Below the pieces are notes generated by a model. It saw nothing but the letters and a program-made list of their open reading frames with translations. It was not told where the DNA came from and did no database searches. From a virus: DNA of 64,000 nt. A program made the translations under genes and the position numbers. Positions 10,281-63,665 of the stretch are shown here, piece after piece. The DNA lies in the IMG/VR virus record IMGVR_UViG_3300028840_006907, positions 288,001 through 352,000 of that record, one strand, 5' to 3'. Position 1 is the stretch's first letter. Every line of letters starts with the position of its first letter.

Positions 10281-10342
10281 AAATTAGATATAAGAAGTCT
10301 CATTGAGACTATTCAATAAAATAATAAATAGGAATAAAAAAG

Positions 10343-11146: not shown

Positions 11147-11176
11147 ATTTACATATAGATATTGAAAGGAGATTGT

Positions 11177-12151: not shown

Positions 12152-12154
12152 CTT

Positions 12155-12856: not shown

Positions 12857-12865
12857 GAGGATAAA

Positions 12866-17141: not shown

Positions 17142-17155
17142 TAGGAGGACGAAGT

Positions 17156-19052: not shown

Positions 19053-19055
19053 AAT

Positions 19056-19718: not shown

Positions 19719-20374
19719 AAAATTATGGCTATGCTGATATGAGTGAAAAAGAAAAATTATCTAAAGAACAAGTATTAGAATTTTGGAAAAATCCTATAAA
19801 CGATAATACTAATAAAAATGAGAACAATGATCCTGAGCATTATTTGAGTGGGGAAAAACGTAGCCGATATCTCGTTGAATTAATTAAAAGGCATTTACAT
19901 AAAGAAGCAAAAATATTAGAGATTGGTTGTAATGTCGGGAGGAATTTGCATTATCTATATGAAACAGGTTATAACAATTTAAATGGGATAGAAATTAATG
20001 ATAATGCTGTTCAAGTGATGCATAAAAATTATCCCGAATTATATGGAAGTGTAGGAATTTATAATTGTCCGGTTGAATCTATTATTACATCTTTTTCCGA
20101 TGAAGCCTATGACTTGGTCTTTACAATGGCTGTTTTAGAGCACATTCATTATGAGAGTGATTTCATTTTCTCTGAGATAGCTCGGGTAGCCAAAAGATGT
20201 ATAATTACAATTGAAGATGAAAAAACTACCTGGAGTAACAGACATTTTCCTCGTAATTATAAGGAGGTGTTTGAGAAGATCGGGAATTGGGTACAGATTT
20301 ATGATATGAATTGTGGTGGGATTAATATACTTGATGATCGATTTTGGGTAAGGGTATTTAAAAAGAATGTCTAA
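19715..20374 (+). CDS. class I SAM-dependent methyltransferase
   Basis: Motif I ILEIGCNVGRN, motif post-I/II region; overlapping start. Confidence 0.6.
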   Translation: MKNYGYADMSEKEKLSKEQVLEFWKNPINDNTNKNENNDPEHYLSGEKRSRYLVELIKRHLHKEAKILEIGCNVGRNLHYLYETGYNNLNGIEINDNAVQVMHKNYPELYGSVGIYNCPVESIITSFSDEAYDLVFTMAVLEHIHYESDFIFSEIARVAKRCIITIEDEKTTWSNRHFPRNYKEVFEKIGNWVQIYDMNCGGINILDDRFWVRVFKKNV

Positions 20375-21158
20375 ACGAATAGTGTTAGTCAGAAATATGG
20401 GAAACAGTGGCGGTGCCTGGTTAATGAAGGTATTTAATATGCATGAAAACATATTAATGTTTCAGGAATTAAACCAGATACTGAGGTTAAGATATGATTA
20501 TTCGGATATAAATAAGAAGAATCTAAATTACCCTCATGTTGACTATGATGTAAAAATAGCTCAACGGAGTCGTGATCTTAAAGGATTTTTATTTAATAGT
20601 AGAACTCAGTGTCATATAGCAACTAGTTTTCTTTTATATCAATATGATATTAGAAAAGAAGATGCGATTGGGTTAATAAAATGTTTTGATCATGAATCTA
20701 TAAGAGAATGTAGAGTAAAATGTCCTTCTGTTAAAGTTGTACAAGTTTTAAGAAATCCTATTGGTATAATAGATTTTTATATGAGTCAGGAAAATTTAAG
20801 GCAAATAGCCCATCATGATCCATATGAAATATCTTTTAAAAAACATGTGGATTTCTTTCATAATAAATTTATAGATTTTTGGGAAAATAATGAAAAAAAA
20901 GGTGAGAAAATTATACGACTAGAAGATTTGAATATATCATTGAAAGATGGAAATCCTTTCTTAAAAGACACTATGGAAGATTTATTTGAAGTTAATTTCT
21001 CAAATGAATTTATTGAAAAAATCAAACAAAATTTAGGTTATGGGAATGAAGGTAACCAGAATAAAGAGATATGGCAAAACTGGGAAGGATGGAAAAAAGA
21101 ATATTTCAAGAAATATTTCGAAAATCTAATGATGAATCTTGGCTATGAATTGAGGTGA
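20367..21158 (+). CDS. sulfotransferase-like protein (paralogue of 16446-17141)
   Basis: MGNSGGAWL and VLRNPIGIIDFY (resembles SULT 3'-PB RNPKD region); shared C-terminal W..W.GWKK.YF motif with paralogue. Confidence 0.4.
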   Translation: MSKRIVLVRNMGNSGGAWLMKVFNMHENILMFQELNQILRLRYDYSDINKKNLNYPHVDYDVKIAQRSRDLKGFLFNSRTQCHIATSFLLYQYDIRKEDAIGLIKCFDHESIRECRVKCPSVKVVQVLRNPIGIIDFYMSQENLRQIAHHDPYEISFKKHVDFFHNKFIDFWENNEKKGEKIIRLEDLNISLKDGNPFLKDTMEDLFEVNFSNEFIEKIKQNLGYGNEGNQNKEIWQNWEGWKKEYFKKYFENLMMNLGYELR

Positions 21159-21161
21159 TAA

Positions 21162-21737
21162 ATGAATTTATTTGAATCTGCGTACTATACTGAAGAGGAT
21201 CTGAGAAAAGGCGGTTTTAAAAGTGTCGGTAAAAATGTTCAGATTGATAAAAGTTGCACGATAATAGGCTTAGATAAAATCACTCTAGGAGATAATGTTC
21301 GAATCGATGGTTACTGTTGTATTATTGCCACAAAAGAGGAAGTGATTTTCGGTTCTTATATTCATATAGGTTCGTTTTGTCATCTCTGTGGAACTGCAGG
21401 TCTTATAATGAAAGATTTTTCAGGTTTGTCACAAGGAGTTCGAATTTACTCCTCTTCTGATGATTATTCAGGAAAGTTTTTAACTAATCCAACTGTTCCC
21501 GATAAATACACAGGTATAATAAGAGAACCAGTTATTATAGGTAAACATGTTATAATCGGGGCTAATACTGTTATTCTTCCAGGAGTTGTTATAGGTGATG
21601 GGTCAGCTATTGGTGCCATGTCCCTTGTAACAAAAGACGTAGATAAAAATAGTGTCTATGCAGGTTGTCCAGCGAAATTTATAAAAACACGTTCAAAAAG
21701 AATATTTGATTTAGAGAAGAGGTTATTAAATGAATAA
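21162..21737 (+). CDS. hexapeptide-repeat (LbH) acetyltransferase
   Basis: Left-handed beta-helix repeats IGANTVILPGVVIGDGSAIGAMSLV. Confidence 0.75.
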   Translation: MNLFESAYYTEEDLRKGGFKSVGKNVQIDKSCTIIGLDKITLGDNVRIDGYCCIIATKEEVIFGSYIHIGSFCHLCGTAGLIMKDFSGLSQGVRIYSSSDDYSGKFLTNPTVPDKYTGIIREPVIIGKHVIIGANTVILPGVVIGDGSAIGAMSLVTKDVDKNSVYAGCPAKFIKTRSKRIFDLEKRLLNE

Positions 21738-22443
21738 ATCAATTTTCATATGTTCAGGAGGTCGATGTGGTACACATTGGGTTCGGCCTATTCTTGCTCA
21801 GCTTTTAGATTTACAAACTGGGTTTGATTGGAAAGGATATAATCCAAATAAAATTCCCTTTAAAACAGAACCTGGAGCTATTTGGAAAATAAAGATGGTA
21901 GAAAAGAGAGAGCCAGGAGGAAGGATTTATTCAGGGCATATGCCAATTACAGAACTTCTACCTATTATCAGTTTAGTAAATATAATAATTCTTATAAGAG
22001 ATCCTAGAGATATGTGTGTTTCGGCTGCATATTATACTCCAGAAAGAAGAGTATTAACTCAAGAAGAATTTGAATCTAAATTTAATAATTTATTAATACA
22101 AGGAAGCCCGAATCCTGATTTTCATGAATCTTATATAGAAAGTAAGAATAAAATACCTCATTTTTTATTAAAATATGAAGATATGATTCATGATGATTAT
22201 GGCTCAATAGTTAAATTTTTAAATAATTCAGGTTATAAATTTGAAGAAGAAAAATTAAAATATGTACTTGATAAAAACTCATTCAAGAATTTATCAGGTG
22301 GACGAGAAGCCGGTGAGGAGGATAATACCGCTTTTTATAGAAAAGGTATTGTGGGTGATTGGGTAAATTATCTCTCTAATGGTTTACTTGAACAATATAC
22401 CGATAGGCATAAAACTTTGTTGGAAGAATGGGGGTATATGTAA
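21730..22443 (+). CDS. sulfotransferase
   Basis: 5'-PSB-like SGGRCGTHW, 3'-PB RDPRD, and C-terminal RKGIVGDWVN matching RKGxxGDWKN. Confidence 0.75.
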   Translation: MNKSIFICSGGRCGTHWVRPILAQLLDLQTGFDWKGYNPNKIPFKTEPGAIWKIKMVEKREPGGRIYSGHMPITELLPIISLVNIIILIRDPRDMCVSAAYYTPERRVLTQEEFESKFNNLLIQGSPNPDFHESYIESKNKIPHFLLKYEDMIHDDYGSIVKFLNNSGYKFEEEKLKYVLDKNSFKNLSGGREAGEEDNTAFYRKGIVGDWVNYLSNGLLEQYTDRHKTLLEEWGYM

Positions 22444-22444
22444 T

Positions 22445-23116
22445 ATGGAAGATTATTTTGAACAAATGGTAACAGTTTTTAAAAAGTACTTTAAAGAGTA
22501 TTATCGTAATGTATTCACAAATCAATCAGTGGAAACCTGTACAGGTATTTATAATCTTTGTAAAAAAGAAAATCCAGATCAAGTAGTGGAAATGGGAACC
22601 AATCATGGGGCTTCTACTCTTTCTATAGTAAAAGCACTGACTGATTTAGGGAAAGATTTGTCTATTATTACTTCAATTGATTTAGACCACGAGAAATGGA
22701 AGGCAACATTTAATATACAAAAAGAATTGATTAAAAAGTATGATTTAAATTTAGGAAAAGTAAAATTAATAACTCAAGATTTTAATTCAGTAGATCCTGT
22801 AGAAATAATTGACCCTGAAAAGAAAGTATTTATTTTTTATGATATGCATGATCATCGAGGCCCATGGTCACAGAGACTACTTGATTTATGGGTACCTTTA
22901 GTTAAGAATGGTGTCTTCTCTATTCATGATGTAACTCCTGTAAGTGAATCCTTTGAAATAGTTCAGGATAAAATTTCCCCTCGAACAAAGATACAGTATA
23001 AGAGTGGGCAGTATTTTGCAGGTTTCAATGAATGTTTTCGAATAATAAAATGGGCAAATACAAATAACATAAATATAGAGATATTTCCAGGAGGAGTATA
23101 TTTCAGAAATGGCTAA
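22445..23116 (+). CDS. putative class I methyltransferase (CmcI/TylF-like)
   Basis: ATG right after upstream stop; VVEMGTNHGAST resembles CmcI-type SAM-binding; weak. Confidence 0.35.
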   Translation: MEDYFEQMVTVFKKYFKEYYRNVFTNQSVETCTGIYNLCKKENPDQVVEMGTNHGASTLSIVKALTDLGKDLSIITSIDLDHEKWKATFNIQKELIKKYDLNLGKVKLITQDFNSVDPVEIIDPEKKVFIFYDMHDHRGPWSQRLLDLWVPLVKNGVFSIHDVTPVSESFEIVQDKISPRTKIQYKSGQYFAGFNECFRIIKWANTNNINIEIFPGGVYFRNG

Positions 23117-23795
23117 CATTTTTATTGGAAAAAATATGTCAAATATAAAAAATATTCCTGGTTTAAATAAAATAACAAAGATACATGATGTGGCTGATTA
23201 TGTGAGATTAGCTGATTTTGTCTATAAAACAATTTCCCATTCTATGGATAGTGGGATTGATTTAGATTATTCTGTTAATCAATTGTATTGGCAATTTGTG
23301 AATAAAAAGAGATTTGGATGGTGCTATATGCATGCTCTGTATTATCATCTTATAGTACAAGAATATGGTCGTGAATCTTTTGTTTATGATTATGGCTTAC
23401 CAGCGCCACAATTAACTCATAGTGTTGTTGTAGTAACTTTACGTGATGATAAGTATTTAATTGATCCTTATTTTAATCGTTATTATGTAACAGAAAAAGG
23501 GAATCCGTATACATTTCCTGACTTATTGGCTATGATAAAAACTGATCCAACAAAAATTTATAGTAAATATGGACCTGGTTTGAAAGAAGTTAAACAGGGA
23601 GATAAATATATAGAAACTTCTCCTGAACAATTTGAAAAAGGAGTATTGGAATCGTGGCGAGTAAATCAGAATTATGATAAAATAATGATGGAAAAATTTA
23701 ATAGCACAAATGCATTATTATTAATGCATTGTAAAGTACAAAAAGCTAAAGTATGTAAAAAAATAGATGGGACAAAGTATTTTGACTTTTTCTAA
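23109..23795 (+). CDS. hypothetical protein
   Basis: ORF in operon context; no motif recognised. Confidence 0.5.
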   Translation: MANIFIGKNMSNIKNIPGLNKITKIHDVADYVRLADFVYKTISHSMDSGIDLDYSVNQLYWQFVNKKRFGWCYMHALYYHLIVQEYGRESFVYDYGLPAPQLTHSVVVVTLRDDKYLIDPYFNRYYVTEKGNPYTFPDLLAMIKTDPTKIYSKYGPGLKEVKQGDKYIETSPEQFEKGVLESWRVNQNYDKIMMEKFNSTNALLLMHCKVQKAKVCKKIDGTKYFDFF

Positions 23796-24570
23796 TGTTA
23801 TATCCTTTATCAGTGCATTTAAAAAGTTTAAACCTCCTTATGGTATGATACAGCATTCTGCTATGTATTCATGGAATGCTAATAATATTGAAGTATTTGT
23901 TCCAGATAATGAGGTTGGAGTTAAAGATGCTTGTCAGAGTTATCCTAATATTAAATTAATCCCCGATGTTAAACGGGCTCGGGAAATGGGCTTTTCAAAT
24001 CAGTCTCCTATGGTAAAAGATCTGATTGCAAAAGCTCTACCTTTAATCAATACTCCGATGGTAGCTTTAATTAATTCAGACATTATAATTCAACCTGATT
24101 TTATAGAAAGAATAGAAAAAATACTGAAAGAATACGGTTTTGATATTTATATGGTGGGAACTCGATTTGATATTAAATTGGATATTCATATAAGTTCGGA
24201 AGAGACATATAAACAGGTATTGAGTTCAGAACGAAAAAGTTATGATGGCAGTACTTCTTCAGATATATTTATAGCTTCTAAATTTACCTGGAGGAAGATA
24301 GTTCATGAAATGCCTGATTTTATTCTAGGTCGGTATGGGTGGGATAATTGGTTACATATGATTGCAGAACTTAAAGGATATCGTAAATTTAATTGTACAG
24401 ATGCTTTGACTATTCTTCATTGTGAGCATGATCATAAGCATATAGTTCTTCAGGAAAAGGCTGAAAAACAAAGTGCTCCAAGTTCACAGCATAATTTAAA
24501 GTTATGGAATGAAGTAAAAAATGTTTATGGGACGACCAGGATAAATGCATGGCCAAAAATTGAAATATAA
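23767..24570 (+). CDS. hypothetical protein
   Basis: ORF in operon context; start uncertain. Confidence 0.5.
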   Translation: MGQSILTFSNVISFISAFKKFKPPYGMIQHSAMYSWNANNIEVFVPDNEVGVKDACQSYPNIKLIPDVKRAREMGFSNQSPMVKDLIAKALPLINTPMVALINSDIIIQPDFIERIEKILKEYGFDIYMVGTRFDIKLDIHISSEETYKQVLSSERKSYDGSTSSDIFIASKFTWRKIVHEMPDFILGRYGWDNWLHMIAELKGYRKFNCTDALTILHCEHDHKHIVLQEKAEKQSAPSSQHNLKLWNEVKNVYGTTRINAWPKIEI

Positions 24571-24661
24571 TAGGGGTAAAGAAGTTTCTCTACCCCTACA
24601 TGCACATTTTAACCACAATCCCATCTTATGGCTAAAAATATAATAAAAGGATGATACAAGA

Positions 24662-25480
24662 ATGAACCTTCTTCAGAGAGTAAAAAAATATTGGGATGAT
24701 AGACCCTGTAATATACGCCATTCAAAGGAACCCGTTGGAACCAGAAATTATTTCAATGAGGTTGAATATAAAAAATATAAAGTTGAACCGCATATATCAG
24801 GTTTCGCTGATTTTAATAAATGGAAGGATAAAAAGGTCCTTGAGATAGGCTGTGGGCTGGGCACTGAGACTATAAATTTTGCTAGAGCTGGTGCTAGGGT
24901 TGTCGCTGTGGATATGTCTGAGAAATCTTTGGAGCTGGCTAAGAAACGAGCGGAAGTTTTTGGCTTGTCCGATAAGATTACATTTTATCAGGGAAATGCT
25001 GAAGAACTTGATAAATTTATCCCAGCTCAGAAATTTGATCTTATCTGGTCTTTTGGTGTTATTCATCATACCCCGAATCCTGAGAACGTTATTGAATGTA
25101 TCAAGAAGTACCTGTCTCCAAGCAGTGAATTACGAATGATGGTTTATAATAAATTTAGTTGGAAAGTATTCTGGATCCTTTTTAAGTACGGGAAGTTTAA
25201 GTTTTGGGATATTGATAAATTCATAGCTCAAAATTCAGAAGCTCAGACCGGGTGCCCAATCACCTACACTTATACAAATAAATCAGTTCAAAAATTACTA
25301 AAAGGGTTTGTAATCGATAATATTAAAATTGAGCATATTTTTCCTTATAAAATTCGTGAATATAAGGAGAATAAATTCAAATTTATCTGGTATTTTAGAT
25401 ACCTGCCCAAATGGTTTTTTCATTGGTTAGAAAAGAGAATCGGTTGGCATATGTGCATAATCGCCAGATGGAGAATTTAG
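24662..25480 (+). CDS. class I SAM-dependent methyltransferase
   Basis: VLEIGCGLGTETINFARAGARVVAVDMSE motif I/II; RBS AAGGA upstream. Confidence 0.8.
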   Translation: MNLLQRVKKYWDDRPCNIRHSKEPVGTRNYFNEVEYKKYKVEPHISGFADFNKWKDKKVLEIGCGLGTETINFARAGARVVAVDMSEKSLELAKKRAEVFGLSDKITFYQGNAEELDKFIPAQKFDLIWSFGVIHHTPNPENVIECIKKYLSPSSELRMMVYNKFSWKVFWILFKYGKFKFWDIDKFIAQNSEAQTGCPITYTYTNKSVQKLLKGFVIDNIKIEHIFPYKIREYKENKFKFIWYFRYLPKWFFHWLEKRIGWHMCIIARWRI

Positions 25481-25487
25481 GGGTGGC

Positions 25488-25565
25488 CAGCCCCGCGTAG
25501 GCGGGGAAAAGGGATACGATAAGAAAAAATCTGCTCTGTGGAACAGCCCCACGAAAGTGGGGAAT
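25488..25565 (-). repeat. two reverse-orientation copies of the CRISPR-like hairpin repeat (mini-array) in a convergent intergenic region
   Basis: Minus-strand reading gives ATTCCCCACTTTCGTGGGGCTG and TTTCCCCGCCTACGCGGGGCTG about 56 bp apart, matching the 51417-52310 unit consensus; bracketed by GGGTGGC/GCCACCC. Confidence 0.5.
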
Positions 25566-25631
25566 AATGCCACCCATTTTAAAAGATAGTATTGGGTGGT
25601 CTTTTAAATCAACTCTAAATTTTCCAGGAGT

Positions 25632-26096
25632 TTACAACCAGTCATCTTCTTTTCGGATAGATATTTTAGATAAAGTATCATTGTTAAGAAAAAGAGTTAC
25701 AATATAACGAACCCATTGATCATCATAATACCCAAATTCTTGTATTTCACTATTATCTGGAAATGAATCTACTATAACACTAGGTCCATAAACTTTCAGG
25801 ATTTTTCTTTTTGACATTCCAATCTTTAAATTTTGAAATTTACCTTCTTTAATTTCGATGTTATATAATCGGTGAGCAAAGATGTAACAAACCATATTCG
25901 GATAGTGCATATAAAGATCACTTTTAATAGTATCAATTTTTATAGGTTCTCCGAATTTTTCTATAACATCTTTAACAGTAAGGTCTTTTCGAAGATCGAA
26001 ATCAGGTCCGAATGGGAAGACACCGCAACTGTCGATTGAACGACTGAAGCATAAACTTACAAAAAGTATGATTGATATTAAAGTTTTCATATTCAC
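25632..26096 (-). CDS. secreted hypothetical protein
   Basis: N-terminal signal-peptide-like segment MNMKTLISIILFVSLCFS. Confidence 0.55.
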   Translation of the reverse strand: MNMKTLISIILFVSLCFSRSIDSCGVFPFGPDFDLRKDLTVKDVIEKFGEPIKIDTIKSDLYMHYPNMVCYIFAHRLYNIEIKEGKFQNLKIGMSKRKILKVYGPSVIVDSFPDNSEIQEFGYYDDQWVRYIVTLFLNNDTLSKISIRKEDDWL

Positions 26097-49949: not shown

Positions 49950-50816
49950 ATGGACAAAAAATATGAAGACCGAATGCTTGTCGTTTTTATCTTAGTGGGT
50001 CTAGTTGGTGGGTCACTGTTCTATTTCCTTAAAGATGGTCAGCCTCTCAGCTCAATTTTCATGACTTTCGCTCTATCAAGTATCCTCTATCGATTCCTGG
50101 GTGGAATTGGCCAAGGCACAAAATTCAGTGTCGGAGCATTTCGGTTAGGTGGTAGTGCAGCCTTCATGATCGGCTGTATCTTTTTTATCAACGAGTACAT
50201 TTTCCCAAAACCAGAAATCAACACCATTGTTTTAAGTACTCCCCAGGATCGATGGGTTCCTGTTAAATACCCTACAGGTGAGTATGTGAATGTTAAGGTA
50301 TTAACTCCTTCTGGAGATACTATTATTCATGGTATAAGTAGTGTAGAAATGGATGCTTTAAAAAAAAGGGAATACTGCATCACAAAAGAAGGGGAGAATT
50401 TTTATATCTGTTCTAATGCTGATTCAACGGTAATAGGCCATCTTAAGTTTGAAGATGTTTTTAAAGCTATTGAAAATGATATCCATATCACAGTCCAAGA
50501 TTTTCGGGTTTTTAAATTATACCCTAATCCTATAAATGACCCAAAAGATCAAGAAAAGAAATATAAAACTACTGATTCACTTGATGCTGTAAGTCAGACT
50601 TTTCCCATAGTAATCGAAGTCGATAAAACTAATATGAATATAAAGACAAAGGATGACAGTTTATTAACATCAGATGTACCTCGTAGTGAAAAATTCTATT
50701 TAGTTGATATTGAAAATGAGTATTTTATAGTTACAATATTACATGCTAATTTAGAAACATCAGAAAGTAAATGGTATTCTGAGTTTCTTGTTGGAAAAGT
50801 ATCTATTAATCGATAG
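49950..50816 (+). CDS. membrane protein
   Basis: Strong RBS AAGGAGG; three N-terminal hydrophobic helices. Confidence 0.55.
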   Translation: MDKKYEDRMLVVFILVGLVGGSLFYFLKDGQPLSSIFMTFALSSILYRFLGGIGQGTKFSVGAFRLGGSAAFMIGCIFFINEYIFPKPEINTIVLSTPQDRWVPVKYPTGEYVNVKVLTPSGDTIIHGISSVEMDALKKREYCITKEGENFYICSNADSTVIGHLKFEDVFKAIENDIHITVQDFRVFKLYPNPINDPKDQEKKYKTTDSLDAVSQTFPIVIEVDKTNMNIKTKDDSLLTSDVPRSEKFYLVDIENEYFIVTILHANLETSESKWYSEFLVGKVSINR

Positions 50817-50823
50817 AGGTAAT

Positions 50824-51252
50824 ATGAGCAATATGAAAATTGCAATAGCTTCTTATATGCGTTATACAGTTGTTTTAGCCAACTTGAAAGAGCATTTCAA
50901 AAGAGAACTCGATCTAGCTGGCCTATTTGATAAAGACTCCGATTATAATGGAATGATAGGTAACGCTGTTATGGACCTGTGTAAAGTCTTCTCTGATCAG
51001 GGCCATAGCGGGTTCTCCGCGAACTGGGTTCTGAAATTGTTCGATACTCTTGGTCACTATAAAACGTTGACTCCTATTACAGATAATCCGAAAGAGTGGA
51101 TGAAGGTTACAGATGGCCTCGGTAGAGATGAACCGGTCTGGCAGAGTAATCGAAATCCTTCCCTTTTTTCTAATAATGGTGGAAAGAGTTATTATGATGT
51201 AGACGATAAGAAGCGTAAGAAGATCCGCTCTAAAAAGTTTAAAAAGAAATAA
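50824..51252 (+). CDS. hypothetical protein with basic C-terminus
   Basis: ATG 50824 with AGAGG RBS (track start 50788 is an overlapping extension); KKRKKIRSKKFKKK tail. Confidence 0.45.
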   Translation: MSNMKIAIASYMRYTVVLANLKEHFKRELDLAGLFDKDSDYNGMIGNAVMDLCKVFSDQGHSGFSANWVLKLFDTLGHYKTLTPITDNPKEWMKVTDGLGRDEPVWQSNRNPSLFSNNGGKSYYDVDDKKRKKIRSKKFKKK

Positions 51253-51387
51253 TTTTTCTGAATAAATCAGGTTTTTTTCTTATTCTTTCGATAATTTCTC
51301 TTCTCTTTTTTCTCATAATTTATTATAATTATATATAGTATCTATAGCTCTTTGAAATTGGTAGAAATTTACTGAATCCGTAAGCCC

Positions 51388-51416
51388 TTGATCTTATGAT
51401 ATTTATGTTTTAGTAT
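51388..51416 (+). promoter_or_regulatory. candidate sigma70-like promoter / leader end upstream of the repeat array
   Basis: TTGATC - 17 nt - TAGTAT immediately before the first repeat, inside an AT-rich leader-like region 51253-51416. Confidence 0.2.
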
Positions 51417-52310
51417 ATTCCCCGCGTATGCGGGGCTGGGCCGATAAATCTTAAAATGGGTAAGATAAAAACCTGAATATTCCCCGCCCATGCGGGGCTG
51501 ATGCGTAATATAAATAATTTTTGATCAATTATAGGACATATTCCCCGCCCCTGCGGGGATTCCCCGAAAATATTGATGTTTTTTTGTATATATCAAAAAT
51601 ATTCCCCGCCCCTGCGGGGTTGATGCGAATACCGAACAAGTGCAGGGCCTGCAGATTATATATTCCCCGCGTATGCGGGGCTGGCGCGTAGGAGGTAAAA
51701 ATGAAATCGAAACATATTCCCCGCGTATGCGGGGCTGGTTCTAGAATTGAATGAAGCGCTGAATTTTCCCCGCCCATGCGGGGCTGAACCGACCGGGAAA
51801 TCATATCTATCCATAAATCTTGCATATTCCCCGCGTATGCGGGGCTGAACCGATACTAGATTGGGACATGTGTTTACCCAGAACATATTCCCCGCCCATG
51901 CGGGGCTGAACCGATTTCAAAAAACACGACCAGATAAAGATGAATATTCCCCGCGTATGCGGGGCTGTGTCAGGGTGAGAGGCTCGTGACGAATAATTTT
52001 TCATATTCCCCGACTCTTCGGGGTTGCCCCTCAGGAAGCTATTGAATTGCAAAAAACTGTATTCCCCGTCTATGCGGGGCTGTCTCTCCACATGCAAATG
52101 TAAGTAGTAAATACTGAATATTCCCCGGCATTCCGGGGCTGATCCCGTCTGGTAAAAACATAAAATGGTTCATCATAAGTATTCCCCGCCCATGCGAGGT
52201 TGGGCCATCCAGTACTGCTACTGCTAGGACCGTATTCCCCGCCCATGCGGGGCTGATCCTACGACTGGGACAGAAGTATTCATTGGTTTCACCCCGGCCT
52301 TTCCGGGGTC
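51417..52310 (+). CRISPR. degenerate type I-E-like CRISPR-style repeat array, 15-16 units, no cas genes in window
   Basis: Units start at 51417, 51479, 51540, 51601, 51662, 51716, 51765, 51826, 51887, 51946, 52005, 52061, 52120, 52181, 52234 (degenerate 52291); core ATTCCCCGC-N4-GCGGGGCTG; best units end CTGAACCGA; period mostly 59-62 bp; intervening sequences unique. Confidence 0.55.
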
Positions 52311-52409
52311 TAAAATAAGGATCTGAGATTTTTTTCTTAGATCCTTATATTTTTAATAATGTATTTATATTATTCCTTTAAATAATATCAAAATAAAAAA
52401 GGAAAAAGT

Positions 52410-53315
52410 ATGGCAATTGCGTTTATGAGAGGAAGCACCACTAATCAGAATGATTTGACCATAACGGTACGTGATACATCCAATAATTTGATCGACCCGT
52501 ATTCGTTGGAGTATGCTGTCTTCGATTACACTAGTGGCACTGAGGTCCTCATCGGATCCCCTGTTAATACTCCGCTCAAGTTGTCAACAGGAGAATATTG
52601 GGCGGAGGTTGTAATAGCAGCCGATGCCAATATAGGTCTCTGGCGCATCCGTTGGACAATTCAAGAAACAGCAGTCAGTCCTGTTTATCAATCGGTTCAG
52701 GAATTTCAAGTAGTAGGTTCCAGTGTTGTGACGAGTGTAACCGGAGATGCAAATTTTGATGCATTGGTCCATTCTTTACGAGTGATACTCCGAGACAACA
52801 ATCCGGACCGCAACTACAGATTTCGTCCCCCAGCTTCCGAGAAATTTATCCAAGGTCAGACCCAAGTCTTTGGATTCATTTGGGAAGATGAAGAGCTTGT
52901 AGAGTATATATACATGGCTATTGACGACTTCAATTCACGCCCCCCGACTACAGGTATAGATGTGGCCAATCTTTGGGGAACTGAGAGACGGTGGAGAACT
53001 ACAATTATTTTAAGAGCAGCAGCTTTTGCATGTTTCGCTATAACAATGAATTGGATCGCTGACGAATTTTCTTATTCAATTTCTGGAGTATCTCTTGACA
53101 TTGAGAAATCTTCGAAGTATCAATCTATGAAAGAGAATTATATCAATGAATATGACAAGCTTGTCGAGGCCAATAAGAGATCCATAAAAATTATAAAAGG
53201 TCTTAGGCAATATCGGTACGGGGTGGGCATCACGAGCGCCCTGGGACCCATGAACAGACCTGGAGTTCAAAGTAGAAGAAACCTTATAAGTCCAAGTTAT
53301 GGCCCTTATTTCTAA
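52410..53315 (+). CDS. hypothetical protein
   Basis: RBS AAGGAAAAAG; 301-aa ORF directly downstream of the array. Confidence 0.55.
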   Translation: MAIAFMRGSTTNQNDLTITVRDTSNNLIDPYSLEYAVFDYTSGTEVLIGSPVNTPLKLSTGEYWAEVVIAADANIGLWRIRWTIQETAVSPVYQSVQEFQVVGSSVVTSVTGDANFDALVHSLRVILRDNNPDRNYRFRPPASEKFIQGQTQVFGFIWEDEELVEYIYMAIDDFNSRPPTTGIDVANLWGTERRWRTTIILRAAAFACFAITMNWIADEFSYSISGVSLDIEKSSKYQSMKENYINEYDKLVEANKRSIKIIKGLRQYRYGVGITSALGPMNRPGVQSRRNLISPSYGPYF

Positions 53316-53408: not shown

Positions 53409-55859
53409 TTATATTTTATTATTTTTTCTAAGGAGAGCTATCTGACGTTTAATCCATCGAGGAGTTTCTTCAAGAGTTTCAGCCATTTGATTTCTTGTCA
53501 TCTTTCCACGATTATCTATTATGAATTGGAGCTTTTCTTCAGTCTTTCTATCTTTGGTACAACCAATAGGGTTTTTTGTAGATAATGTACCTTTTTTTTG
53601 TAAGAATTTTATTTGAGATTTAACCCATCGCTCTGTTTCATTGAGAGCTTTAGATAATTCTTTTTTAGTTTTATTTTTATAATTAGTGATTATATACTGC
53701 GTTTTTTCAGGGGTTCTTCTACATTTTGTTGAGAATTTAGAAATCTCTTTTAAATAGGTAAATTTCTCAGTGGGTTGTTTAATATTTATATCTTCAATAC
53801 ATTTTGAATTATATATTTCTTTTTCTCTTTTAGGATAAGGTTTAGTAACATAATTTTTTAATTTGTTAATTTTTTTCTTATCTCTTTTATTTTCACCTAT
53901 TAATAAGACATATTTATGTTTTCTTTCAGTAATAAATTTTTGAGCTTCAGATAATATATTTTTATTCCAATTATTCCATTGAACTTTAATTCCTTCTGGT
54001 ATGGTACTCATATTTTTAAAACCATTTTCTTTAAACCATTCCTTTTGAGAAATAATCCCTTGATTTTTACACCATTTTTTAAATGCTGATGTACGTTTTA
54101 GAGATTGAGCTGAAAAAGTCCTATTATTTTTAATGGAAGGATGTTTATATAAGTATGAACTTCCAAAGTTATTTCCTAGATAATCAAATCCACAAGCTTG
54201 GTAAATAGTCCCTATTTCAAGAGCTTTAGGATCAGCATAACCTATGAAAGCTCTTTTAGAAGTGTTATTAGCCATCCAATTACAAGCAAACCTTATAAGA
54301 CGGCTACCCAGGTTTTTCGGGGTCCATGAGGCAGTGGCACCTCTTTGAATTAAAGCTTCATATTTGGGAGTATCTTTACCTAGAATTTTGGAATATGCTG
54401 TGGGTTCATTTATAAATAATACTCCTGCGAGAATATTATTGTATCTGGCTGTGAAGCACCATTTTGGTATTACTCCAATTGTTCCTAACCATTCATATTT
54501 TTTTATAAATTGGACCATTTCATTATTAAATTTTTCTTCAGATAATGTAAAAGAAGTAGCTTTTAAAGAAGAGTGATTGAAATCGATATTTTTTTTATCT
54601 TCATCAATCCATTGAAGTTTCTTTTTATATTGGTGGCATATAAAAGTGGTCTTGTTTTTACTGTTAATTTTATTTTTTATTAAATCAATGATAATACCTT
54701 TTCGGATAGCTTCTTTTACATCATCAGACCAAAATCTAATCAAATTGGGTATATTTTTATTTTGGATTTCATCATTCTTAATATTTTCTTTTATTTTTAA
54801 TGCCCTTGGAGACGTATCATTTTCTCTTATTTCTTTACCATGCCAATAATTACCATCATATTGTACCCATAAGTTATAGCGAGGCATATAGAAATCAATT
54901 ACATGTTTAATAATTGGGTGCATAACTTGATGTTCTACAAAAGGATCAAATACAATAAGATAATTAAAAAAGTTATTTTCTTCATCTGAGGATGAGAAGG
55001 AATTATTTAGTTTAACTGTTTTATATGTTTTTTCTTTTATTTCAACATTCTGTTGGGGATTTTCAACGCCATATCTTTCAATATTAGTTTCAGTGATTTT
55101 TTTCTTAATCTCTGGAGATTGGAATACATTGTCAACCCCGTATCTTGATTGTACTGTTACTTTAACTTTTCTTTTTACTTCTTTAGATTGAGAGGGGTAT
55201 TCTACTCCTCGTTTTTCAATATTAGATTGACGGGATTTTTCTTTCATTGAGTTTAGTTGAGTAGAATATTCTACGCCATAACGTTTTTTAATAGTTTCGT
55301 TATTATGTTTAACTATATCTTCATTTATTTTATCTCGATTCCTTCTTAATCCTAGTTTAATAGCTCTTTCTCGGATGGCTTTCCAGGTCCTGTTTTCAAA
55401 GTAGAGCATAATAAATTCCATAGAATTCTTTTCATATACTTCTTTTAAAAGATCATCTTCTTTGGGTGACCAGAAGTCTTCCCTAGCAGGAGCGCTTTTA
55501 CCACCATCAATCATTTCTTGTTTAATTATTTCAGGATTTCTTTGAAGGTTTAATTTTTGAGCATTACTTCGGATGCTTTGCCATGATCGATTCTTGAATT
55601 TAGAAAGGATAAATTCTTTTGAATTATTTTCATATATATTTTTAAGAATATTTATCTCTTCGGTTGTCCAGGAATCTTTTCTTGGTCCTCTTTTTTTACG
55701 GTCTTCATTTATAAGGTCAGGATTACGGTGAAGATTTAGCTTACGTGCTTTTCTACAGATGGTTGTCCAAGATTTATTTAATTTGGAGATAATAAATTCT
55801 TTTGAATTATTTTTATATATTTCTTTTAATAAATTTTCTTCTTCTATTTTCCAACGCAT
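53409..55859 (-). CDS. large multidomain DNA-binding / nuclease-like protein
   Basis: Start at MRWKIEE (RBS AGAGG; track start 55916 is a non-ATG extension); three tandem ~60-aa HTH-like repeats (W..EE..L...Y...S.EFI..F.NR.W..IR..A.KL.L.RN), tandem RYGVEN repeats, Vsr/DUF559-like motif FYMPRYNLWVQYDGNYWHG, two C-terminal ET.RW.K.QI.LL.K repeats. Confidence 0.6.
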   Translation of the reverse strand: MRWKIEEENLLKEIYKNNSKEFIISKLNKSWTTICRKARKLNLHRNPDLINEDRKKRGPRKDSWTTEEINILKNIYENNSKEFILSKFKNRSWQSIRSNAQKLNLQRNPEIIKQEMIDGGKSAPAREDFWSPKEDDLLKEVYEKNSMEFIMLYFENRTWKAIRERAIKLGLRRNRDKINEDIVKHNNETIKKRYGVEYSTQLNSMKEKSRQSNIEKRGVEYPSQSKEVKRKVKVTVQSRYGVDNVFQSPEIKKKITETNIERYGVENPQQNVEIKEKTYKTVKLNNSFSSSDEENNFFNYLIVFDPFVEHQVMHPIIKHVIDFYMPRYNLWVQYDGNYWHGKEIRENDTSPRALKIKENIKNDEIQNKNIPNLIRFWSDDVKEAIRKGIIIDLIKNKINSKNKTTFICHQYKKKLQWIDEDKKNIDFNHSSLKATSFTLSEEKFNNEMVQFIKKYEWLGTIGVIPKWCFTARYNNILAGVLFINEPTAYSKILGKDTPKYEALIQRGATASWTPKNLGSRLIRFACNWMANNTSKRAFIGYADPKALEIGTIYQACGFDYLGNNFGSSYLYKHPSIKNNRTFSAQSLKRTSAFKKWCKNQGIISQKEWFKENGFKNMSTIPEGIKVQWNNWNKNILSEAQKFITERKHKYVLLIGENKRDKKKINKLKNYVTKPYPKREKEIYNSKCIEDINIKQPTEKFTYLKEISKFSTKCRRTPEKTQYIITNYKNKTKKELSKALNETERWVKSQIKFLQKKGTLSTKNPIGCTKDRKTEEKLQFIIDNRGKMTRNQMAETLEETPRWIKRQIALLRKNNKI

Positions 55860-55962
55860 ATGAGTACCTCTTTTTAGTATATTACTTATTATAACAGGTA
55901 TTAGAGTTATTGTCAATATTTCATTTAATAAATATGGAATTCATTAATTTATAGGGAAAAAG

Positions 55963-56316
55963 ATGGAAATTGAAATTTATGGAAAAGAATTTGTTTCTTG
56001 TAATATTTTAAGGGCTGAAGTAGGTACAAATTGCCCACAGGGGGGAGATACAGGACATGGTGGTCGAACTATTTTAAGATTGATTGATGAAGCAGCTACT
56101 GATATAAGTATAAAAGTAGATGGTCAGCCTTTAGGTAGTATAAAAACTTTGGAAATATTATTAGGTGGCGATACTGAGTGCGACACTTTTATGAATGCTC
56201 TTAATTTTGCCTTGAATGTATTAAAAGATCATAATCCAAATTATGAAATGGATCCACATATAAGAGGTTCTGGGAAGGGATTGATACAAAAAGATTATAA
56301 AATAGAAACATTATGA
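55963..56316 (+). CDS. hypothetical protein (first gene of ATPase mini-operon)
   Basis: ORF whose stop overlaps next start (ATGA). Confidence 0.5.
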   Translation: MEIEIYGKEFVSCNILRAEVGTNCPQGGDTGHGGRTILRLIDEAATDISIKVDGQPLGSIKTLEILLGGDTECDTFMNALNFALNVLKDHNPNYEMDPHIRGSGKGLIQKDYKIETL

Positions 56317-56861
56317 TTACAAAGATAGAATTATTAGAAAAATACAGAACTTTAAAACCGTTTGTTATGGAGCCTAATCTAGGAGTCAATCTTATTGTTG
56401 GTGAGAATGGTTCGGGTAAATCCTCATTGTTAAATATTATAAAGGAAAATGCTCCTGAGGTAAGATTAGAAATTGAAGGTACTATAAATTATTACCATTT
56501 TGATACGGAAAAGGACAATCCTCGAACTCAAGGCACTCTTCCATTTAATGCTCCTGGTGATGTTTATGCCTATCATCTGACGTCACATTTCCAGAGTCAT
56601 GGTGAAGTACTATTTCCTATTTTAAATCTTATGAGAACTTTTGAGAACAGGATTTTATTCTATGATGAACCGGAGAGTGGGGTCTCGATTAATAATCAGT
56701 TAAAGGCATGTACTGCGATAAGAAAAGCGGTAAGGAATGGTTGTCAACTTTTTATTGCGACTCATTCTTATATATTTATAAAAAAATTTAAAAAAGTCTT
56801 TGATTTAAAGACATATCAATTTGTAAAATCAGAGGATTGGTTATCTCAATTTAGGATATAA
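56313..56861 (+). CDS. minimal ABC-type P-loop ATPase
   Basis: Walker A GENGSGKSS, Walker B ILFYDEPESG, H-loop-like IATHS in only 182 aa. Confidence 0.6.
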   Translation: MITKIELLEKYRTLKPFVMEPNLGVNLIVGENGSGKSSLLNIIKENAPEVRLEIEGTINYYHFDTEKDNPRTQGTLPFNAPGDVYAYHLTSHFQSHGEVLFPILNLMRTFENRILFYDEPESGVSINNQLKACTAIRKAVRNGCQLFIATHSYIFIKKFKKVFDLKTYQFVKSEDWLSQFRI

Positions 56862-59978: not shown

Positions 59979-62900
59979 ATGGCTCAAGTAGAAAGAAAAT
60001 GGATCCAGGACCAAGCAATTTCCAATGAAAAAGTAGATCCCACTGATATTTATACCATTACAGGTTTAAGAGTTGATGAAACCAATGCCATTGGGAGAGT
60101 AGGAATAGGTTTATCTAGCCCTTTGGATGCTCTTCATATTCAACGAACTGATTCTTCTTCTGGAATGATGCTGGATCTTAGTGATGGTACAAATGGTAAA
60201 CTTTATAAGATATATTCAGGAGCTAATGGTTTACTGAATTTTACTGATGCTACAGATGGGGGCATATTCACCTATGGTGAATCAGGTTCGATAGGTCGAG
60301 TTGGTATCAATACCGCATCTATCCAAGATCACCTTCATGTAAGTTCCCCTTTAACAGATGCTGCGTTAAGACTTGATTTAGATGATGGACTCAATGGTCG
60401 AGCTTATCGTCTTGTCTCAGATACAGATGGAGCTTTTAGGATAATTGATGTTGATGCGGGTAATGTAAATAGACTTCAGATTGCTAATACAGGAACTTTA
60501 ACTGTCTCAGGTGATGCAACTTTTGATAGTAATTTTCAAATTAATGGTACTGTTACAGTTATTAATACTGAAATTGTCATTGCAGATCAATTAGAAATAA
60601 ATCAAACTGACAATCAGGCAGCATTGATAGTAAGTCAAGATACAGGTGGTGCTACAGCCACTGTAATGAGAATTGAAAATGCTGGCACAGGCCATGCTTT
60701 AACCGTAGATTCTGGTAATGTAGGTATTGGTACTTTAACTCCGGCTGCTCCTCTTCATGTTCAAGGTGATATAATTACTGCCAATGGGTATAATATCGGA
60801 GACACCACTCATAGAATTGGTACTCTTTGGATGGCTTCTACTGTAGATTATTTGACTGACCTTAATTTTAGTTCAGGTGGAACAAATGTTACTTTTGCAA
60901 CCGGTGGAAATGTCGGGATAGGTTCTGGTACTCCTACCCAGGCCCTGGATGTGGTTGGAACTATAGAAAATACAGGTGATATCATAACAACTGGTTCTTA
61001 TCCTTCCGGTTTAATAAGAGGAGCTTATTTAACGATAACTACTGGAAATTCGACTTTCCAAGGAAGAGTGGGAATTGGTGTTACAAGTCCGTCTTATCCT
61101 CTTCATGTTGGTGGAGACATTTATTCCAATACAGGTAATATTGTAGCCACTGCTGGAACTGTGACAGGTGGATCTGGTTTAATAGCTACTACAGGTGGTG
61201 TTATAGCCTCTGCTGGAAATATAACAGCGACCTTGGGTGATCTCATCGCTTCTGCGGGTTCTGTAACTGCTAATACAAATGTAACTGCTACGAATGGAAA
61301 TATAGTTGCTTCTAATGGAAATATTTCTGCTACGAATGGTACAGTAACAGGAGGCACCGGTTTAATAGCTACCACAGGGGGTGTGACCGCTACGAATGGA
61401 AATATAGTTGCTTCTAATGGAAATATTTCTGCTACGAATGGTACAGTAACAGGAGGCACCGGTTTAATAGCTACCACAGGGGGTGTGACCGCTTTAGCTG
61501 GTAATATCTCTGCTTCGGCTGGTTCTGTAACTGCTAATACTAATATAACAGCCACGAATGGTAATATTGTTGCTTCTAATGGAAATATTTCTGCTACAAA
61601 TGGTACGGTAACAGGAGGCACCGGTTTAATAGCGACTACAGGTGGTGTAACCGCTACGGCTGGAAATATCACTGCTTCAAATGGTAGTTTTGTCGCTCCA
61701 AATGGAATTGTAAGTGTAGGTTTTGGCGTTATAGCAGCAGGGGGTGATATATTTGCCCAAACGGGTAAAGTAGGAATTTCAACCAGTTCTATTGCAGGAG
61801 GTTATGTATTACATGTTCAAGGAAACGCTTATTGTTCAGGTCAAGTAGATACAAATACTTTGGATGTAGGTAGTGGCAGTTTTACTGTAAGTGCAATTGG
61901 TGCAACAAATATCGGACCAGGCTGGTTAACTTTCGGTCAACATATGTCTGGTGGAGGACAGATTGGATCTGCTTCTACCGTAAATATTGTTTCAACCAGT
62001 GGTGCAACTATGTCAGGAGGTTCAGGCGCTGTCTCAATTACTACTAATAACAGTGGTACGCCAAGTGCGATTAATGTGACCTCTGGAAATAACACCGGAT
62101 CAGGAGTTGGTGGAGCACTCAATCTGAATGCAGGTGATTCGGGAGGAGCTGGTACAGGTGGTGCAGTAACTATTACTGGAGGAACGGCTTCAGGTGGTGG
62201 ATCTACAGGAGGAGACATTTTGCTGCTTCCTGGAAGTGCTGTCTCAAATGGGCGCGTTGAGGTAGGCACAGGTGCCTCTTCGAAAAATTTATGGGTTTCA
62301 GGTAGTGTAACTATAGAAGGAGCTAATTCTGCTTTTGCTCTTTCGATTAATAATACGAATTATGTAGGAGCTTATTGTGCAATAGCAGGAGCATCAACGG
62401 TAGCTGGCTGGTTTGAAAATAGTGGTTCAGATTCAACATCTATGTTTGTGCAACAATTAAATACTGGTAAAGGGCTTTTCGCTACTGGATTAGGATTAAA
62501 TTCTTTTGCAGGATTTTTCCAAAGTACGGGCTATACAACTCTTAGGTCAGAAGTGAGTGGTACTGGAGGTGGTGATTATGCTGTACATGCAATATGTACA
62601 AATGCTGGATCGAGTGCCACTTCAGCAGCAGTTTTTGCTCAAAATTGGGGAGGTGGAAAAGCTATTCAGGCAACCGCAGGAACTGGAACTACTATTCAAG
62701 GGTCAAACACTAATGGTACTGCTATTTATGGGTCTCAAGCAGGAACCTCTGGTAGAGCAGGACGTTTTAGGTGTAATGCTGGATCTTATGCATACAATGC
62801 TGTTGAGGTAGAAGTGACTTCAGGTACAGGAGCTTCAAAAGGGATCTTAGTTAATTATACCGGTTCTGGTAATGCTATAGAAGTAAACGGTGGTAGTGGC

Positions 62901-63665
62901 TATGGTATTGAAGCATACCAAAGTGCAGGAACAGTTTATCATGGGACTAATTCAGGAACTACAGGTAGAGCTGCTTTATTCGAAACTTCTAATACCAGTT
63001 TTAATGGTACTATAGTTGAAATAAGTAGTAATACAACATCACTGAATAATAATTGTTTAGTTTGCAATCATTCAGGTAGTGGTACAGGTCTTACTGTTAA
63101 CTCCAATGCAGCGGGTGCTAGTTTTGGTATTAACAGCTTTATGCCGGGTGTCTCTGGAACTGGAAGAGCTATTAATGGCTACTGTGTTTCAGCATCAGGA
63201 TTTGCCGGTTATTTTACTGGGAATGTACATATTGCGGGTACTCTTTCTAAAACTGCGGGTGGTTTTAAAATTGATCATCCAATTGAACCTGAGACAAAGA
63301 ATTTAGTTCATAGTTTTGTTGAAAGCCCTGAGATGAGGAATGTCTATTATGGACGGGCTGTGACTCATGATGGGACAGCATCTATAGGTCTTCCGGATTG
63401 GTGGGTTACATTAAATGGGTCTAATAAGGAAGAGTATAATTATAGTTTAACTACTATTGGTAAATACAGCAGATTATTTATTAGTAAAGAAATAGAGAAC
63501 AATCAATTTGAAGTCTCTTCATTGGATGGAGACTGTACTTTTTCCTGGACTATCTCAGCCATTCGCCATGATACTTATGCTGAGAGCAACAGAATACAAG
63601 TAGAAAAGAACAAAACACAAGAAGAAATAGATGATTATAAAAAAGAGCATGGCATTTCTGTCTAA
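59979..63665 (+). CDS. giant Gly/Thr/Ser-rich fibre protein (tail-fibre or surface-fibre like) with internal tandem repeats
   Basis: 1228 aa; RBS AAAGGAG; at least six G.VGIGT..P...LHV.G motifs, 34-aa tandem repeats, C-terminal FKIDHP...VHSFVESPE...YYG domain. Confidence 0.8.
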   Translation: MAQVERKWIQDQAISNEKVDPTDIYTITGLRVDETNAIGRVGIGLSSPLDALHIQRTDSSSGMMLDLSDGTNGKLYKIYSGANGLLNFTDATDGGIFTYGESGSIGRVGINTASIQDHLHVSSPLTDAALRLDLDDGLNGRAYRLVSDTDGAFRIIDVDAGNVNRLQIANTGTLTVSGDATFDSNFQINGTVTVINTEIVIADQLEINQTDNQAALIVSQDTGGATATVMRIENAGTGHALTVDSGNVGIGTLTPAAPLHVQGDIITANGYNIGDTTHRIGTLWMASTVDYLTDLNFSSGGTNVTFATGGNVGIGSGTPTQALDVVGTIENTGDIITTGSYPSGLIRGAYLTITTGNSTFQGRVGIGVTSPSYPLHVGGDIYSNTGNIVATAGTVTGGSGLIATTGGVIASAGNITATLGDLIASAGSVTANTNVTATNGNIVASNGNISATNGTVTGGTGLIATTGGVTATNGNIVASNGNISATNGTVTGGTGLIATTGGVTALAGNISASAGSVTANTNITATNGNIVASNGNISATNGTVTGGTGLIATTGGVTATAGNITASNGSFVAPNGIVSVGFGVIAAGGDIFAQTGKVGISTSSIAGGYVLHVQGNAYCSGQVDTNTLDVGSGSFTVSAIGATNIGPGWLTFGQHMSGGGQIGSASTVNIVSTSGATMSGGSGAVSITTNNSGTPSAINVTSGNNTGSGVGGALNLNAGDSGGAGTGGAVTITGGTASGGGSTGGDILLLPGSAVSNGRVEVGTGASSKNLWVSGSVTIEGANSAFALSINNTNYVGAYCAIAGASTVAGWFENSGSDSTSMFVQQLNTGKGLFATGLGLNSFAGFFQSTGYTTLRSEVSGTGGGDYAVHAICTNAGSSATSAAVFAQNWGGGKAIQATAGTGTTIQGSNTNGTAIYGSQAGTSGRAGRFRCNAGSYAYNAVEVEVTSGTGASKGILVNYTGSGNAIEVNGGSGYGIEAYQSAGTVYHGTNSGTTGRAALFETSNTSFNGTIVEISSNTTSLNNNCLVCNHSGSGTGLTVNSNAAGASFGINSFMPGVSGTGRAINGYCVSASGFAGYFTGNVHIAGTLSKTAGGFKIDHPIEPETKNLVHSFVESPEMRNVYYGRAVTHDGTASIGLPDWWVTLNGSNKEEYNYSLTTIGKYSRLFISKEIENNQFEVSSLDGDCTFSWTISAIRHDTYAESNRIQVEKNKTQEEIDDYKKEHGISV
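61288..61491 (+). repeat. two perfect 102-bp in-frame tandem repeats inside the fibre gene (third diverged copy near 61552-61653)
   Basis: Identical DNA units encoding TATNGNIVASNGNISATNGTVTGGTGLIATTGGV. Confidence 0.85.

Follow-up and report, generated by a model that had tools for sequence, protein, structure and literature searches.

Here we describe a type I-E-like CRISPR array that lies without neighbouring cas genes in a 64,000-nucleotide (nt) stretch of viral DNA, positions 288,001 to 352,000 of the IMG/VR record IMGVR_UViG_3300028840_006907 (hereafter the window; all coordinates are counted from its first letter). The feature is a real derivative of a type I-E array, carried by what is probably a huge phage; the known kinds of element to which it relates are the Cas-less arrays of phages and the RNA anti-CRISPRs (Racrs), and its function is one that we infer. 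Its 15 full units and degenerate terminal repeat keep the hairpin recognised by Cas6e nearly intact, whereas the end of the handle that follows the hairpin has diverged in most units. The reading that we favour, tentatively and with somewhat less than even confidence, is that the locus acts as a multi-unit, Racr-like decoy for type I-E Cas6e and Cascade.

Architecture of the array

The main locus and its parts are all on the plus strand:

51415-52311, plus strand: type I-E-like array, 15 full units and a degenerate terminal repeat (pattern scan, type I-E register)
51253-51414, plus strand: AT-rich leader-like stretch, from the stop codon of the preceding Tad3 gene to the first repeat (sequence)
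51310-51339, plus strand: putative sigma-70-like promoter within the leader, TTCTCA-18-TATAGT (9 of 12 positions agree in a consensus scan; a consensus match only)
51763-51913, plus strand: units 7-9, the sole three repeats with the canonical type I-E 5' handle CTGAACCG (sequence)
52118-52260, plus strand: units 13-15; units 13 and 15 carry the terminal CTGATCC handle of a further genuine type I-E family (28-nt repeats)
52287-52311, plus strand: degenerate terminal repeat TTTCA CCCCGG CCTTT CCGGGG TCT, with the stem variant of unit 13 (sequence)
52315-52357, plus strand: intrinsic-terminator-like hairpin of 14 pairs, then a T-rich run (a consensus-type match only)

Each unit follows the plan ATATT CCCCGC NNNN GCGGGG CTG NNNNN, a 29-nt repeat, and continues into a spacer-like insert of 20-33 nt. 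A scan of the window for CCCCGC-N4-GCGGGG returned 14 matches at no more than one mismatch, against 0.01 expected by chance, and the core taken together with its flanks (TATT...CTG, up to three mismatches) gave 17 matches against 0.00 expected. A preliminary description of this DNA, made from the letters alone, had reported tandem units with a conserved hairpin core; its count is borne out for the main array, and it had missed two members of the family, the 2 of the 17 flanked-core matches that lie outside the array on the minus strand (25566-25488).

The repeats start at 51415, 51477, 51538, 51599, 51660, 51714, 51763 and 51824 (units 1-8) and at 51885, 51944, 52003, 52059, 52118, 52179 and 52232 (units 9-15), and the periods are, in order, 62, 61, 61, 61, 54, 49, 61, 61, 59, 59, 56, 59, 61, 53 and 55 nt. 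The full ...GCGGGGCTGAACCG is present in units 7-9, with spacers of 32 nt after units 7 and 8 and of 30 nt after unit 9; the canonical units sit mid-array, away from the leader end. The putative terminator is predicted to close the array transcription unit ahead of the core gene downstream. Tandem Repeats Finder did not report the main array, as is expected because unique inserts separate the repeats. Folding of the whole array as one RNA was discarded as uninformative, the repeats pairing among themselves.

The repeat belongs to the type I-E family

A scan of one genome per species with ATTCCCCGC-N4-GCGGGGCTG recovered long, regular arrays of 61-nt period that end in CTGAACCG in Acidobacteriaceae, Acidipila, Alphaproteobacteria and Rhodospirillales, and others that end in CTGATCC in Propionibacteriaceae and Corynebacterium, the CTGATCC family being found in further arrays too. 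Several of these bacterial arrays have type I-E Cas7, Cas5, Cas6e or Cse1 genes close by. The best units of the window equal the E. coli K-12 repeat GAGTTCCCCGCGCCAGCGGGGATAAACCG at 21 of 29 positions, all 12 stem positions included. Units 7-9 equal genuine type I-E repeats at all non-loop positions from base 2, handle included, and the same repeat, loop aside, also occurs in bacterial arrays and beside type I-E cas genes on a peat contig (L069). Given that type I-E cas genes accompany the same core and handle elsewhere and that E. coli has an identical stem, membership of the type I-E family in plus-strand orientation, which the preliminary description had proposed, is well supported. The repeat of the main array likewise agrees with the general form of type I-E repeats (28-29 nt, a G+C stem of 6-7 base pairs (bp), a tetraloop and homologous flanks).

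In Rfam no family reached gathering score, and the matches seen up to E = 10 were chance ones. GenBank phages contained nothing like the locus at 1e-5, and a metagenome scan with the loop variants of the window found only the phage itself and an element from peat with 33% guanine plus cytosine (GC).

Selective conservation of the Cas6e module

Across the units the 5' flank departs from the consensus by 5.3%, each stem arm by 3.3%, the CTG by 11% and the loop by 28%, and divergence rises to 41% in the last five bases of the handle (44% when these are compared with AACCG); core and tail differ with a Fisher P of 1.3e-15. Only 5 of the 15 handles are canonical (three CTGAACCG, two CTGATCC) and 10 are not, so the main array lacks the conserved 8-nt 5' handle that a type I-E array has in essentially all units. 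Divergent handles in most units and shortened periods, here down to 49 nt, had both been described before and are confirmed.

The stems vary little. Stem cells are paired in 98.9% of cases, a value reached by 1 of 500 shuffles, and stem variation is limited to the loop-closing pair, which is C-G 12 times and has become A-U in unit 11, U-G in unit 12 and G-C in unit 13; a single C.A mismatch occurs in the stem of unit 14. The compensatory stem changes of the preliminary description are therefore real, and within the main array they are confined to this one pair of units 11, 12 and 13. The hairpin is lost in no unit: the longest period is 62 nt, and loss is excluded because it would leave a period of about 120 nt, as it does in the peat arrays.

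By contrast, arrays elsewhere with the same core keep the tail. Thirteen bacterial arrays have canonical tails in more than 90% of cases. Among viral sequences, the comparator set being the first 120 IMG/VR matches to TTCCCCGC-N4-GCGGGG, 114 loci hold one or two units and six multi-unit arrays are regular, with conserved tails. Divergence of the handle tail in all comparators (13 bacterial, 6 viral and the peat arrays) is 0-10%, against 44% here. Judged on its sequence, the main array is an outlier in which the parts required by Cas6e appear to have been kept and those required by other Cascade subunits largely lost. The earlier proposal of selection on the hairpin, and not on the handle of the CRISPR RNA (crRNA), agrees with these figures (stems 3.3%, tail 44%, P about 1e-15, comparators keeping the tail).

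The same figures bear on whether the locus could be a type I-E array, acquired from a host or another element, that is eroding by deletion and substitution and has no present function. Neutral decay should strike stems like tails, and the contrast just given departs from that expectation; the stem changes are compensatory, the 16 GC-only hairpins have all been retained in a genome of 33% GC, and the variant tails are GC-rich, with no drift towards AT. The promoter-like and terminator signals are intact, and a second locus keeps the same module. Erosion would account for the array being lineage-specific and absent from close relatives, for spacers that are only ever shortened next to scrambled handles, and for the failure to find targets; the peat arrays, where Cas1 and Cas2 are absent, show microhomology deletions at the handle/spacer junction. 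On balance we regard decay as rather improbable.

Spacers and the possibility of a working guide array

Spacers of the main array measure 20-33 nt. Seven of the 15 are 32-33 nt long and the other 8 are shortened (20-30 nt), four of them to 20-27 nt, in units whose handles are non-canonical. The spacers cannot be aligned with one another, their longest common run being 10 nt, in agreement with the unique intervening sequences reported earlier; with the rest of the window the longest common run is 15 nt. Their GC fraction is 0.339, against 0.333 for the window, and the first three are only 12-24% GC. The earlier impression of GC-rich spacers, taken as a sign of foreign origin, is thus not upheld, the local rise in GC at the array being due to the repeats and not to the spacers.

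A search for protospacers, suggested by the preliminary description, gave no match in the window, among the spacers themselves, in the relatives fetched or in 877 kb from 45 clade relatives in IMG/VR. GenBank phages had none either, the matches seen up to E = 10 being chance ones of 20-40 nt, and IMG/VR had none for spacers 7-9. The array is also identical to that of the window in all recovered assemblies (L059, L060, L071 and L077, which are separate assemblies), which indicates that there has been no spacer turnover. The idea that the spacers are themselves structured was rejected: their summed folding energy is ordinary (P = 0.39-0.42), and they are no more structured than random genomic segments. 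Spacer 5 (51689-51713), TAGGAGGTAAAAATGAAATCGAAAC, contains a strong ribosome-binding site and an ATG that opens a 17-codon open reading frame (ORF) through repeat 6, and it gave chance matches to Bacillus phage gene starts.

A working Cas-less guide array, processed by host type I-E Cas proteins or by a distant set encoded by the phage and directed against competing phages or host genes, a role suggested before for huge phages and viral mini-arrays, would have several of these properties: seven spacers of 32-33 nt, all spacers unique, a leader, a terminator and five canonical handles, with spacers equal in GC to AT-rich phage DNA. Arrays that lack cas genes and have host-like repeats are frequent in huge phages (Al-Shayeb et al. 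2020, PMC7162821), and a relative from the same clade, L115, has a clean Cas-less type I-E mini-array (IMG/VR, 127.7 kb, 59% GC; two repeats, GTGTTCCCCGCGCGAGCGGGGATGTCCC, at 12606-12700, 1.8 kb downstream of the core gene of L115). Set against this are the 10 of 15 handles that fall outside both canonical families, where real arrays are more than 90% canonical, the eight off-size spacers, the absence of protospacers from the collections just listed, the lack of spacer turnover among assemblies, and canonical units placed mid-array rather than at the leader end. We consider a guide array unlikely, while allowing it the largest share among the readings that compete with a decoy.

A second locus of the same hairpin family

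25488-25566, minus strand: two-unit mini-array, same hairpin family (flanked-core scan)

The second locus reads ATTATT CCCCAC TTTC GTGGGG CTG TTCCA, then a 27-nt spacer, then CTTTT CCCCGC CTAC GCGGGG CTG GCCAC, and lies between the convergent ORFs 24662-25480 (plus) and 25632-26096 (minus). Stem pair 5 has changed on both sides, from G-C to A-U, and both hairpins are intact and both handles non-canonical. No target was found for its spacer. With one spacer it fits the definition of a viral CRISPR mini-array, whereas the main locus, with 15, does not.

The occurrence of one hairpin family at two separate intergenic sites, both bounding blocks of genes, would also suit a non-CRISPR RNA element that serves in processing, stability or termination at operon boundaries and resembles type I-E repeats for historical reasons only. 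Genes of this AT-rich genome are commonly followed by GC-rich hairpins. Such an element leaves unexplained the match of units 7-9, handle included, to genuine repeats, and the identity of the 61-nt period with that of type I-E; termination needs no fifteen tandem copies, no T runs follow the hairpins on the plus strand, and the 64 kb hold two loci only. We therefore judge this reading very improbable.

A lineage-specific insertion in the genome of a probable huge phage

The genes flanking the main array are the following:

50788-51252, plus strand: homologue of Tad3, an inhibitor of type I Thoeris, directly 5' of the array (Pfam PF25185, E = 5.1e-33; phrog_14697)
52410-53315, plus strand: 301-amino-acid core gene of a huge-phage clade, marking the downstream edge of the insertion site (homologue search)
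53409-55916, minus strand: 835-amino-acid protein that combines DUF7487 and Mom DNA-modification domains with repeated Myb-like segments, 1.1 kb downstream of the array

The protein encoded at 52410-53315, through which the relatives were traced, was found on contigs of 388,651 bp (JGI 3300017963), 469,541 bp and 469,617 bp, the contigs being drawn from JGI, ENA, Logan and NCBI. The window is probably part of a huge phage of a low-GC host; we word this as a probability because terminase and capsid genes were not identified. In keeping with huge phages, the genome exceeds 200 kb, the array has no acquisition or interference genes nearby, and relatives are present in IMG/VR.

The preliminary description had recognised no Cas protein in the window, and dedicated searches agree: no type I-E Cas homologue was found in the 64 kb (best tblastn E 0.35), PADLOC returned no cas family among all its matches in the window down to E = 4.8e-7, and the 10 kb downstream of the window contains no cas gene, so that about 74 kb are covered together. 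Lists of Cas7 and Cas6e homologues contained no protein on the 389-470 kb contigs, a weak negative of limited sensitivity.

The 301-amino-acid core protein has 962 homologues, and IMG/VR contains 45 related loci, whose contigs reach 467 kb and are 33-65% GC. Many homologues (P0003, P0004, P0021, P0072-P0079 and others) are 460-509 amino acids long owing to an intein insertion (PF14890). The protein has no sequence match in the PDB; its AlphaFold2 model is weak (predicted local distance difference test score, pLDDT, 69), and a phage portal-adaptor protein is the best match of the model, itself a weak one.

The closest relatives, whose core proteins show 81-86% identity, have a gap of only 35-158 nt in front of the core gene, with no array in it, and the genes ahead of the core gene differ among relatives (Tad3, sulfotransferase, rhodanese). 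Since the closest relatives lack the array and the content of the slot varies, the array is best described as a lineage-specific insertion in a variable accessory slot. Tad3 occurs at the same place in relatives, but with other accessory genes next to it, and versions of the 835-amino-acid Mom-domain protein recur beside the core gene. No known acr gene was identified near the array, its neighbours being the Tad3 and Mom-domain genes.

Elsewhere the window holds homing endonucleases, a thymidylate kinase and a PHROG virion protein, and no tRNAs. Positions 8931-25480 (plus) form a sugar/nonulosonic-acid block with NeuB, a DegT aminotransferase, GDP-mannose dehydratase and UDP-glucose dehydrogenase, together with glycosyltransferases and many methyltransferases, which is unusual phage cargo. 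Tandem repeats of 21, 81 and 102 nt at 61277-61686, inside the ORF 59979-63665 (1228 amino acids), suggest a repetitive, fibre-like structural protein. One ORF among 79 matches prokaryotic viperin (pVip) models (PADLOC, E = 2e-17), and ORF 56313-56861 encodes a small ATPase of the AAA_15/AAA_21 type that resembles the ATPases of defence systems.

A proposed decoy for Cas6e

The mechanism that we propose starts from the anatomy, repeat family, selective conservation, genomic context and lineage-specific presence described above; transcription, Cas6e binding and inhibition are steps that we infer. An RNA of about 1 kb would be made from the leader promoter to the terminator at 52315-52357. Its 16 repeats would each form a CCCCGC/GCGGGG hairpin of 6 bp flanked by TATT and CUG, the module recognised by type I-E Cas6e, and Cas6e would bind the hairpins, cut at the 3' base of the stem and remain on the product. 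With non-canonical handles in 10 of 15 units and short spacers in 8 of 15, most products could not seed a proper Cascade; the resulting dead-end complexes would soak up Cas6e, possibly Cas7 as well, and less Cascade would be loaded with host crRNA. Real guides may still come from the five canonical-handle units (three CTGAACCG, two CTGATCC).

We favour the decoy for several reasons. Conservation concentrates on the Cas6e module while the comparator arrays keep the handle, and this pattern matches data on RacrIF1, in which mutations of the stem-loop abolish inhibition, changes in the 8-nt 5' handle are tolerated and what lies upstream of the Cas6 cut is the active product (PMC10651486). The context points the same way, with Tad3 directly upstream, a Mom-domain gene near, a variable slot and no array in the closest relatives, as do the absence of cas genes from the window and the next 10 kb and the lack of spacer turnover. 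A promoter-like site, a strong terminator and a second locus with intact hairpins and non-canonical handles complete the case. The preliminary description had offered four functions (a decaying orphan array, a mini-array using host Cas, a Cas6e-binding decoy and a non-CRISPR structured RNA) without choosing; the evidence now leans to the third, and a guide array and a decaying remnant, each unlikely, keep appreciable shares.

Several points weigh against a decoy. The conservation statistics compare paralogous units in one genome, and the assemblies represent one phage population. The other 310-390 kb or so of the phage genome could encode Cas proteins. Described Racrs are solitary, and a decoy of 16 repeats is without precedent; seven spacers of exact type I-E length and five canonical handles indicate that the locus once served as a real guide array, and in part it may do so even now. 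The handle is under some constraint: the GC content of the variant tails is 67% and that of the spacers 34% (P = 3e-7); tail types recur in pairs (GGCCG/GGCCA, ATGCG twice, ATCCC/ATCCT); and position 28 of the repeat is an invariant C. A pure decoy leaves the GC-rich tails, their recurrence in pairs and the invariant position unexplained, and the mixture of two handle families in one array is likewise without an explanation.

A more specific form of the decoy, which we regard as doubtful, is a polyvalent sponge for Cas6e, and if so the first multi-unit RNA anti-CRISPR: 16 hairpins on one transcript, with handles that are non-functional or drawn from at least two type I-E families, would titrate Cas6e and poison Cascade across type I-E variants, and the second mini-locus would act alike. 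If the decoy reading is true, many arrays that phages and plasmids carry and that pass as 'orphan' or 'degenerate' may be counter-defence RNAs and not dying CRISPR loci. The mark of an array decoy would then be scrambled handles and off-size spacers together with intact Cas6 hairpins, and the ratio of handle to hairpin conservation would offer a simple sequence criterion by which to screen further mobile elements. E. coli K-12 has an identical stem, which makes the idea directly testable in the standard type I-E model system.

Comparison with known systems

Genuine type I-E arrays (E. coli K-12, as given above; Acidobacteriaceae, GCATTCCCCGCACACGCGGGGCTGAACCG) have the same stem, tetraloop length, 61-nt period and orientation as the main array, the CTG/AACCG handle of units 7-9, and a degenerate terminal repeat likewise. 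The main array differs in having no cas operon nearby, in loops that change from unit to unit and in its mixture of two handle families, with AACCG in 3 of 15 handles and ATCC in 2 of 15, where real arrays are more than 90% canonical.

A further comparison is with the peat element (L068, L069/L126, L072 and L123-L125), which is 33% GC and encodes the complete type I-E interference module, cas3-cse1-cse2-cas6e-cas7-cas5 (confirmed with Pfam), without cas1 or cas2. Its array directly follows the cas genes in the same orientation, with the repeat GTATTCCCCGCACACGCGGGGCTGAACCG. The peat arrays are equally irregular, with spacers of 18-109 nt, and have a tail divergence of 7.5%; they differ between contigs through deletions and spacer fusions. 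The element thus resembles the main array in GC content, in the repeat apart from the loop, in irregular spacers and in a G-U at the same loop-closing pair, and is unlike it in having Cascade and Cas3 in cis, in keeping the handle and in arrays that vary among contigs. Kinship between the two was rejected, as they have no gene in common, and no similarity was detected between the leader of the main array and that of the peat type I-E array. P0148, on a 375-kb contig, was also rejected, being a bacterium with a different repeat.

With the Cas-less or partial CRISPR loci of huge phages (PMC7162821) and the viral mini-arrays that have been described (reviewed in PMC11656645), the main array shares a genome of more than 200 kb, the absence of acquisition or interference genes nearby and a repeat of bacterial type. 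In those loci the repeats are uniform, with a median number of six, and the spacers often match related phages; the main array has heterogeneous handles and off-size spacers, for which the searches above gave no target. Targeting of related viruses, a mark of mini-arrays, was not seen in the searches made (45 relatives, GenBank phages and, for spacers 7-9, IMG/VR).

Phage arrays of crRNA-like regulatory RNAs (Cracrs) against type I-E have 2-3 spacers, degenerate repeats and pseudo-spacers of 21-24 nt, and co-encoded Cracr units target different variants of one CRISPR type (bioRxiv 10.1101/2024.10.29.618823). The main array is like them in being phage-borne, multi-unit and of type I-E, with shortened pseudo-spacers and degenerate repeats, and their multiplexing against variants invites the same comparison. 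It could accordingly be read as a regulatory array whose short pseudo-spacers load host Cascade and silence cas or toxin promoters without cleavage, multiplexed against type I-E variants; the four spacers of 20-27 nt and the coexistence of two type I-E handle families would fit. The RNA of CracrIE1 keeps the typical 8-nt 5' handle (bioRxiv 10.1101/2024.10.29.618823), as most units here do not. Known Cracr arrays are far smaller than the 15 spacers here, and their pseudo-spacers match cas or toxin promoters, where the spacers of the main array gave no target in the collections searched. This makes a Cracr-like function quite improbable in our view.

Racrs (Camara-Wilpert et al. 2023, PMC10651486) have been described as solitary repeat units, and SRUFinder drops arrays by design (PMC10651486). 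The main array departs from them in its 16 tandem repeats, where a solitary unit has none within 100 bp, in spacer-like inserts mostly of type I-E length, in five canonical handles, in a neighbour that is an anti-Thoeris gene and not a known acr, and in being known from sequence alone. With Racrs it shares a repeat mimic on a viral genome, no cas genes adjacent, a counter-defence gene next door, and above all a conserved Cas6-binding stem-loop beside a variable handle, the part that in Racrs is dispensable (PMC10651486).

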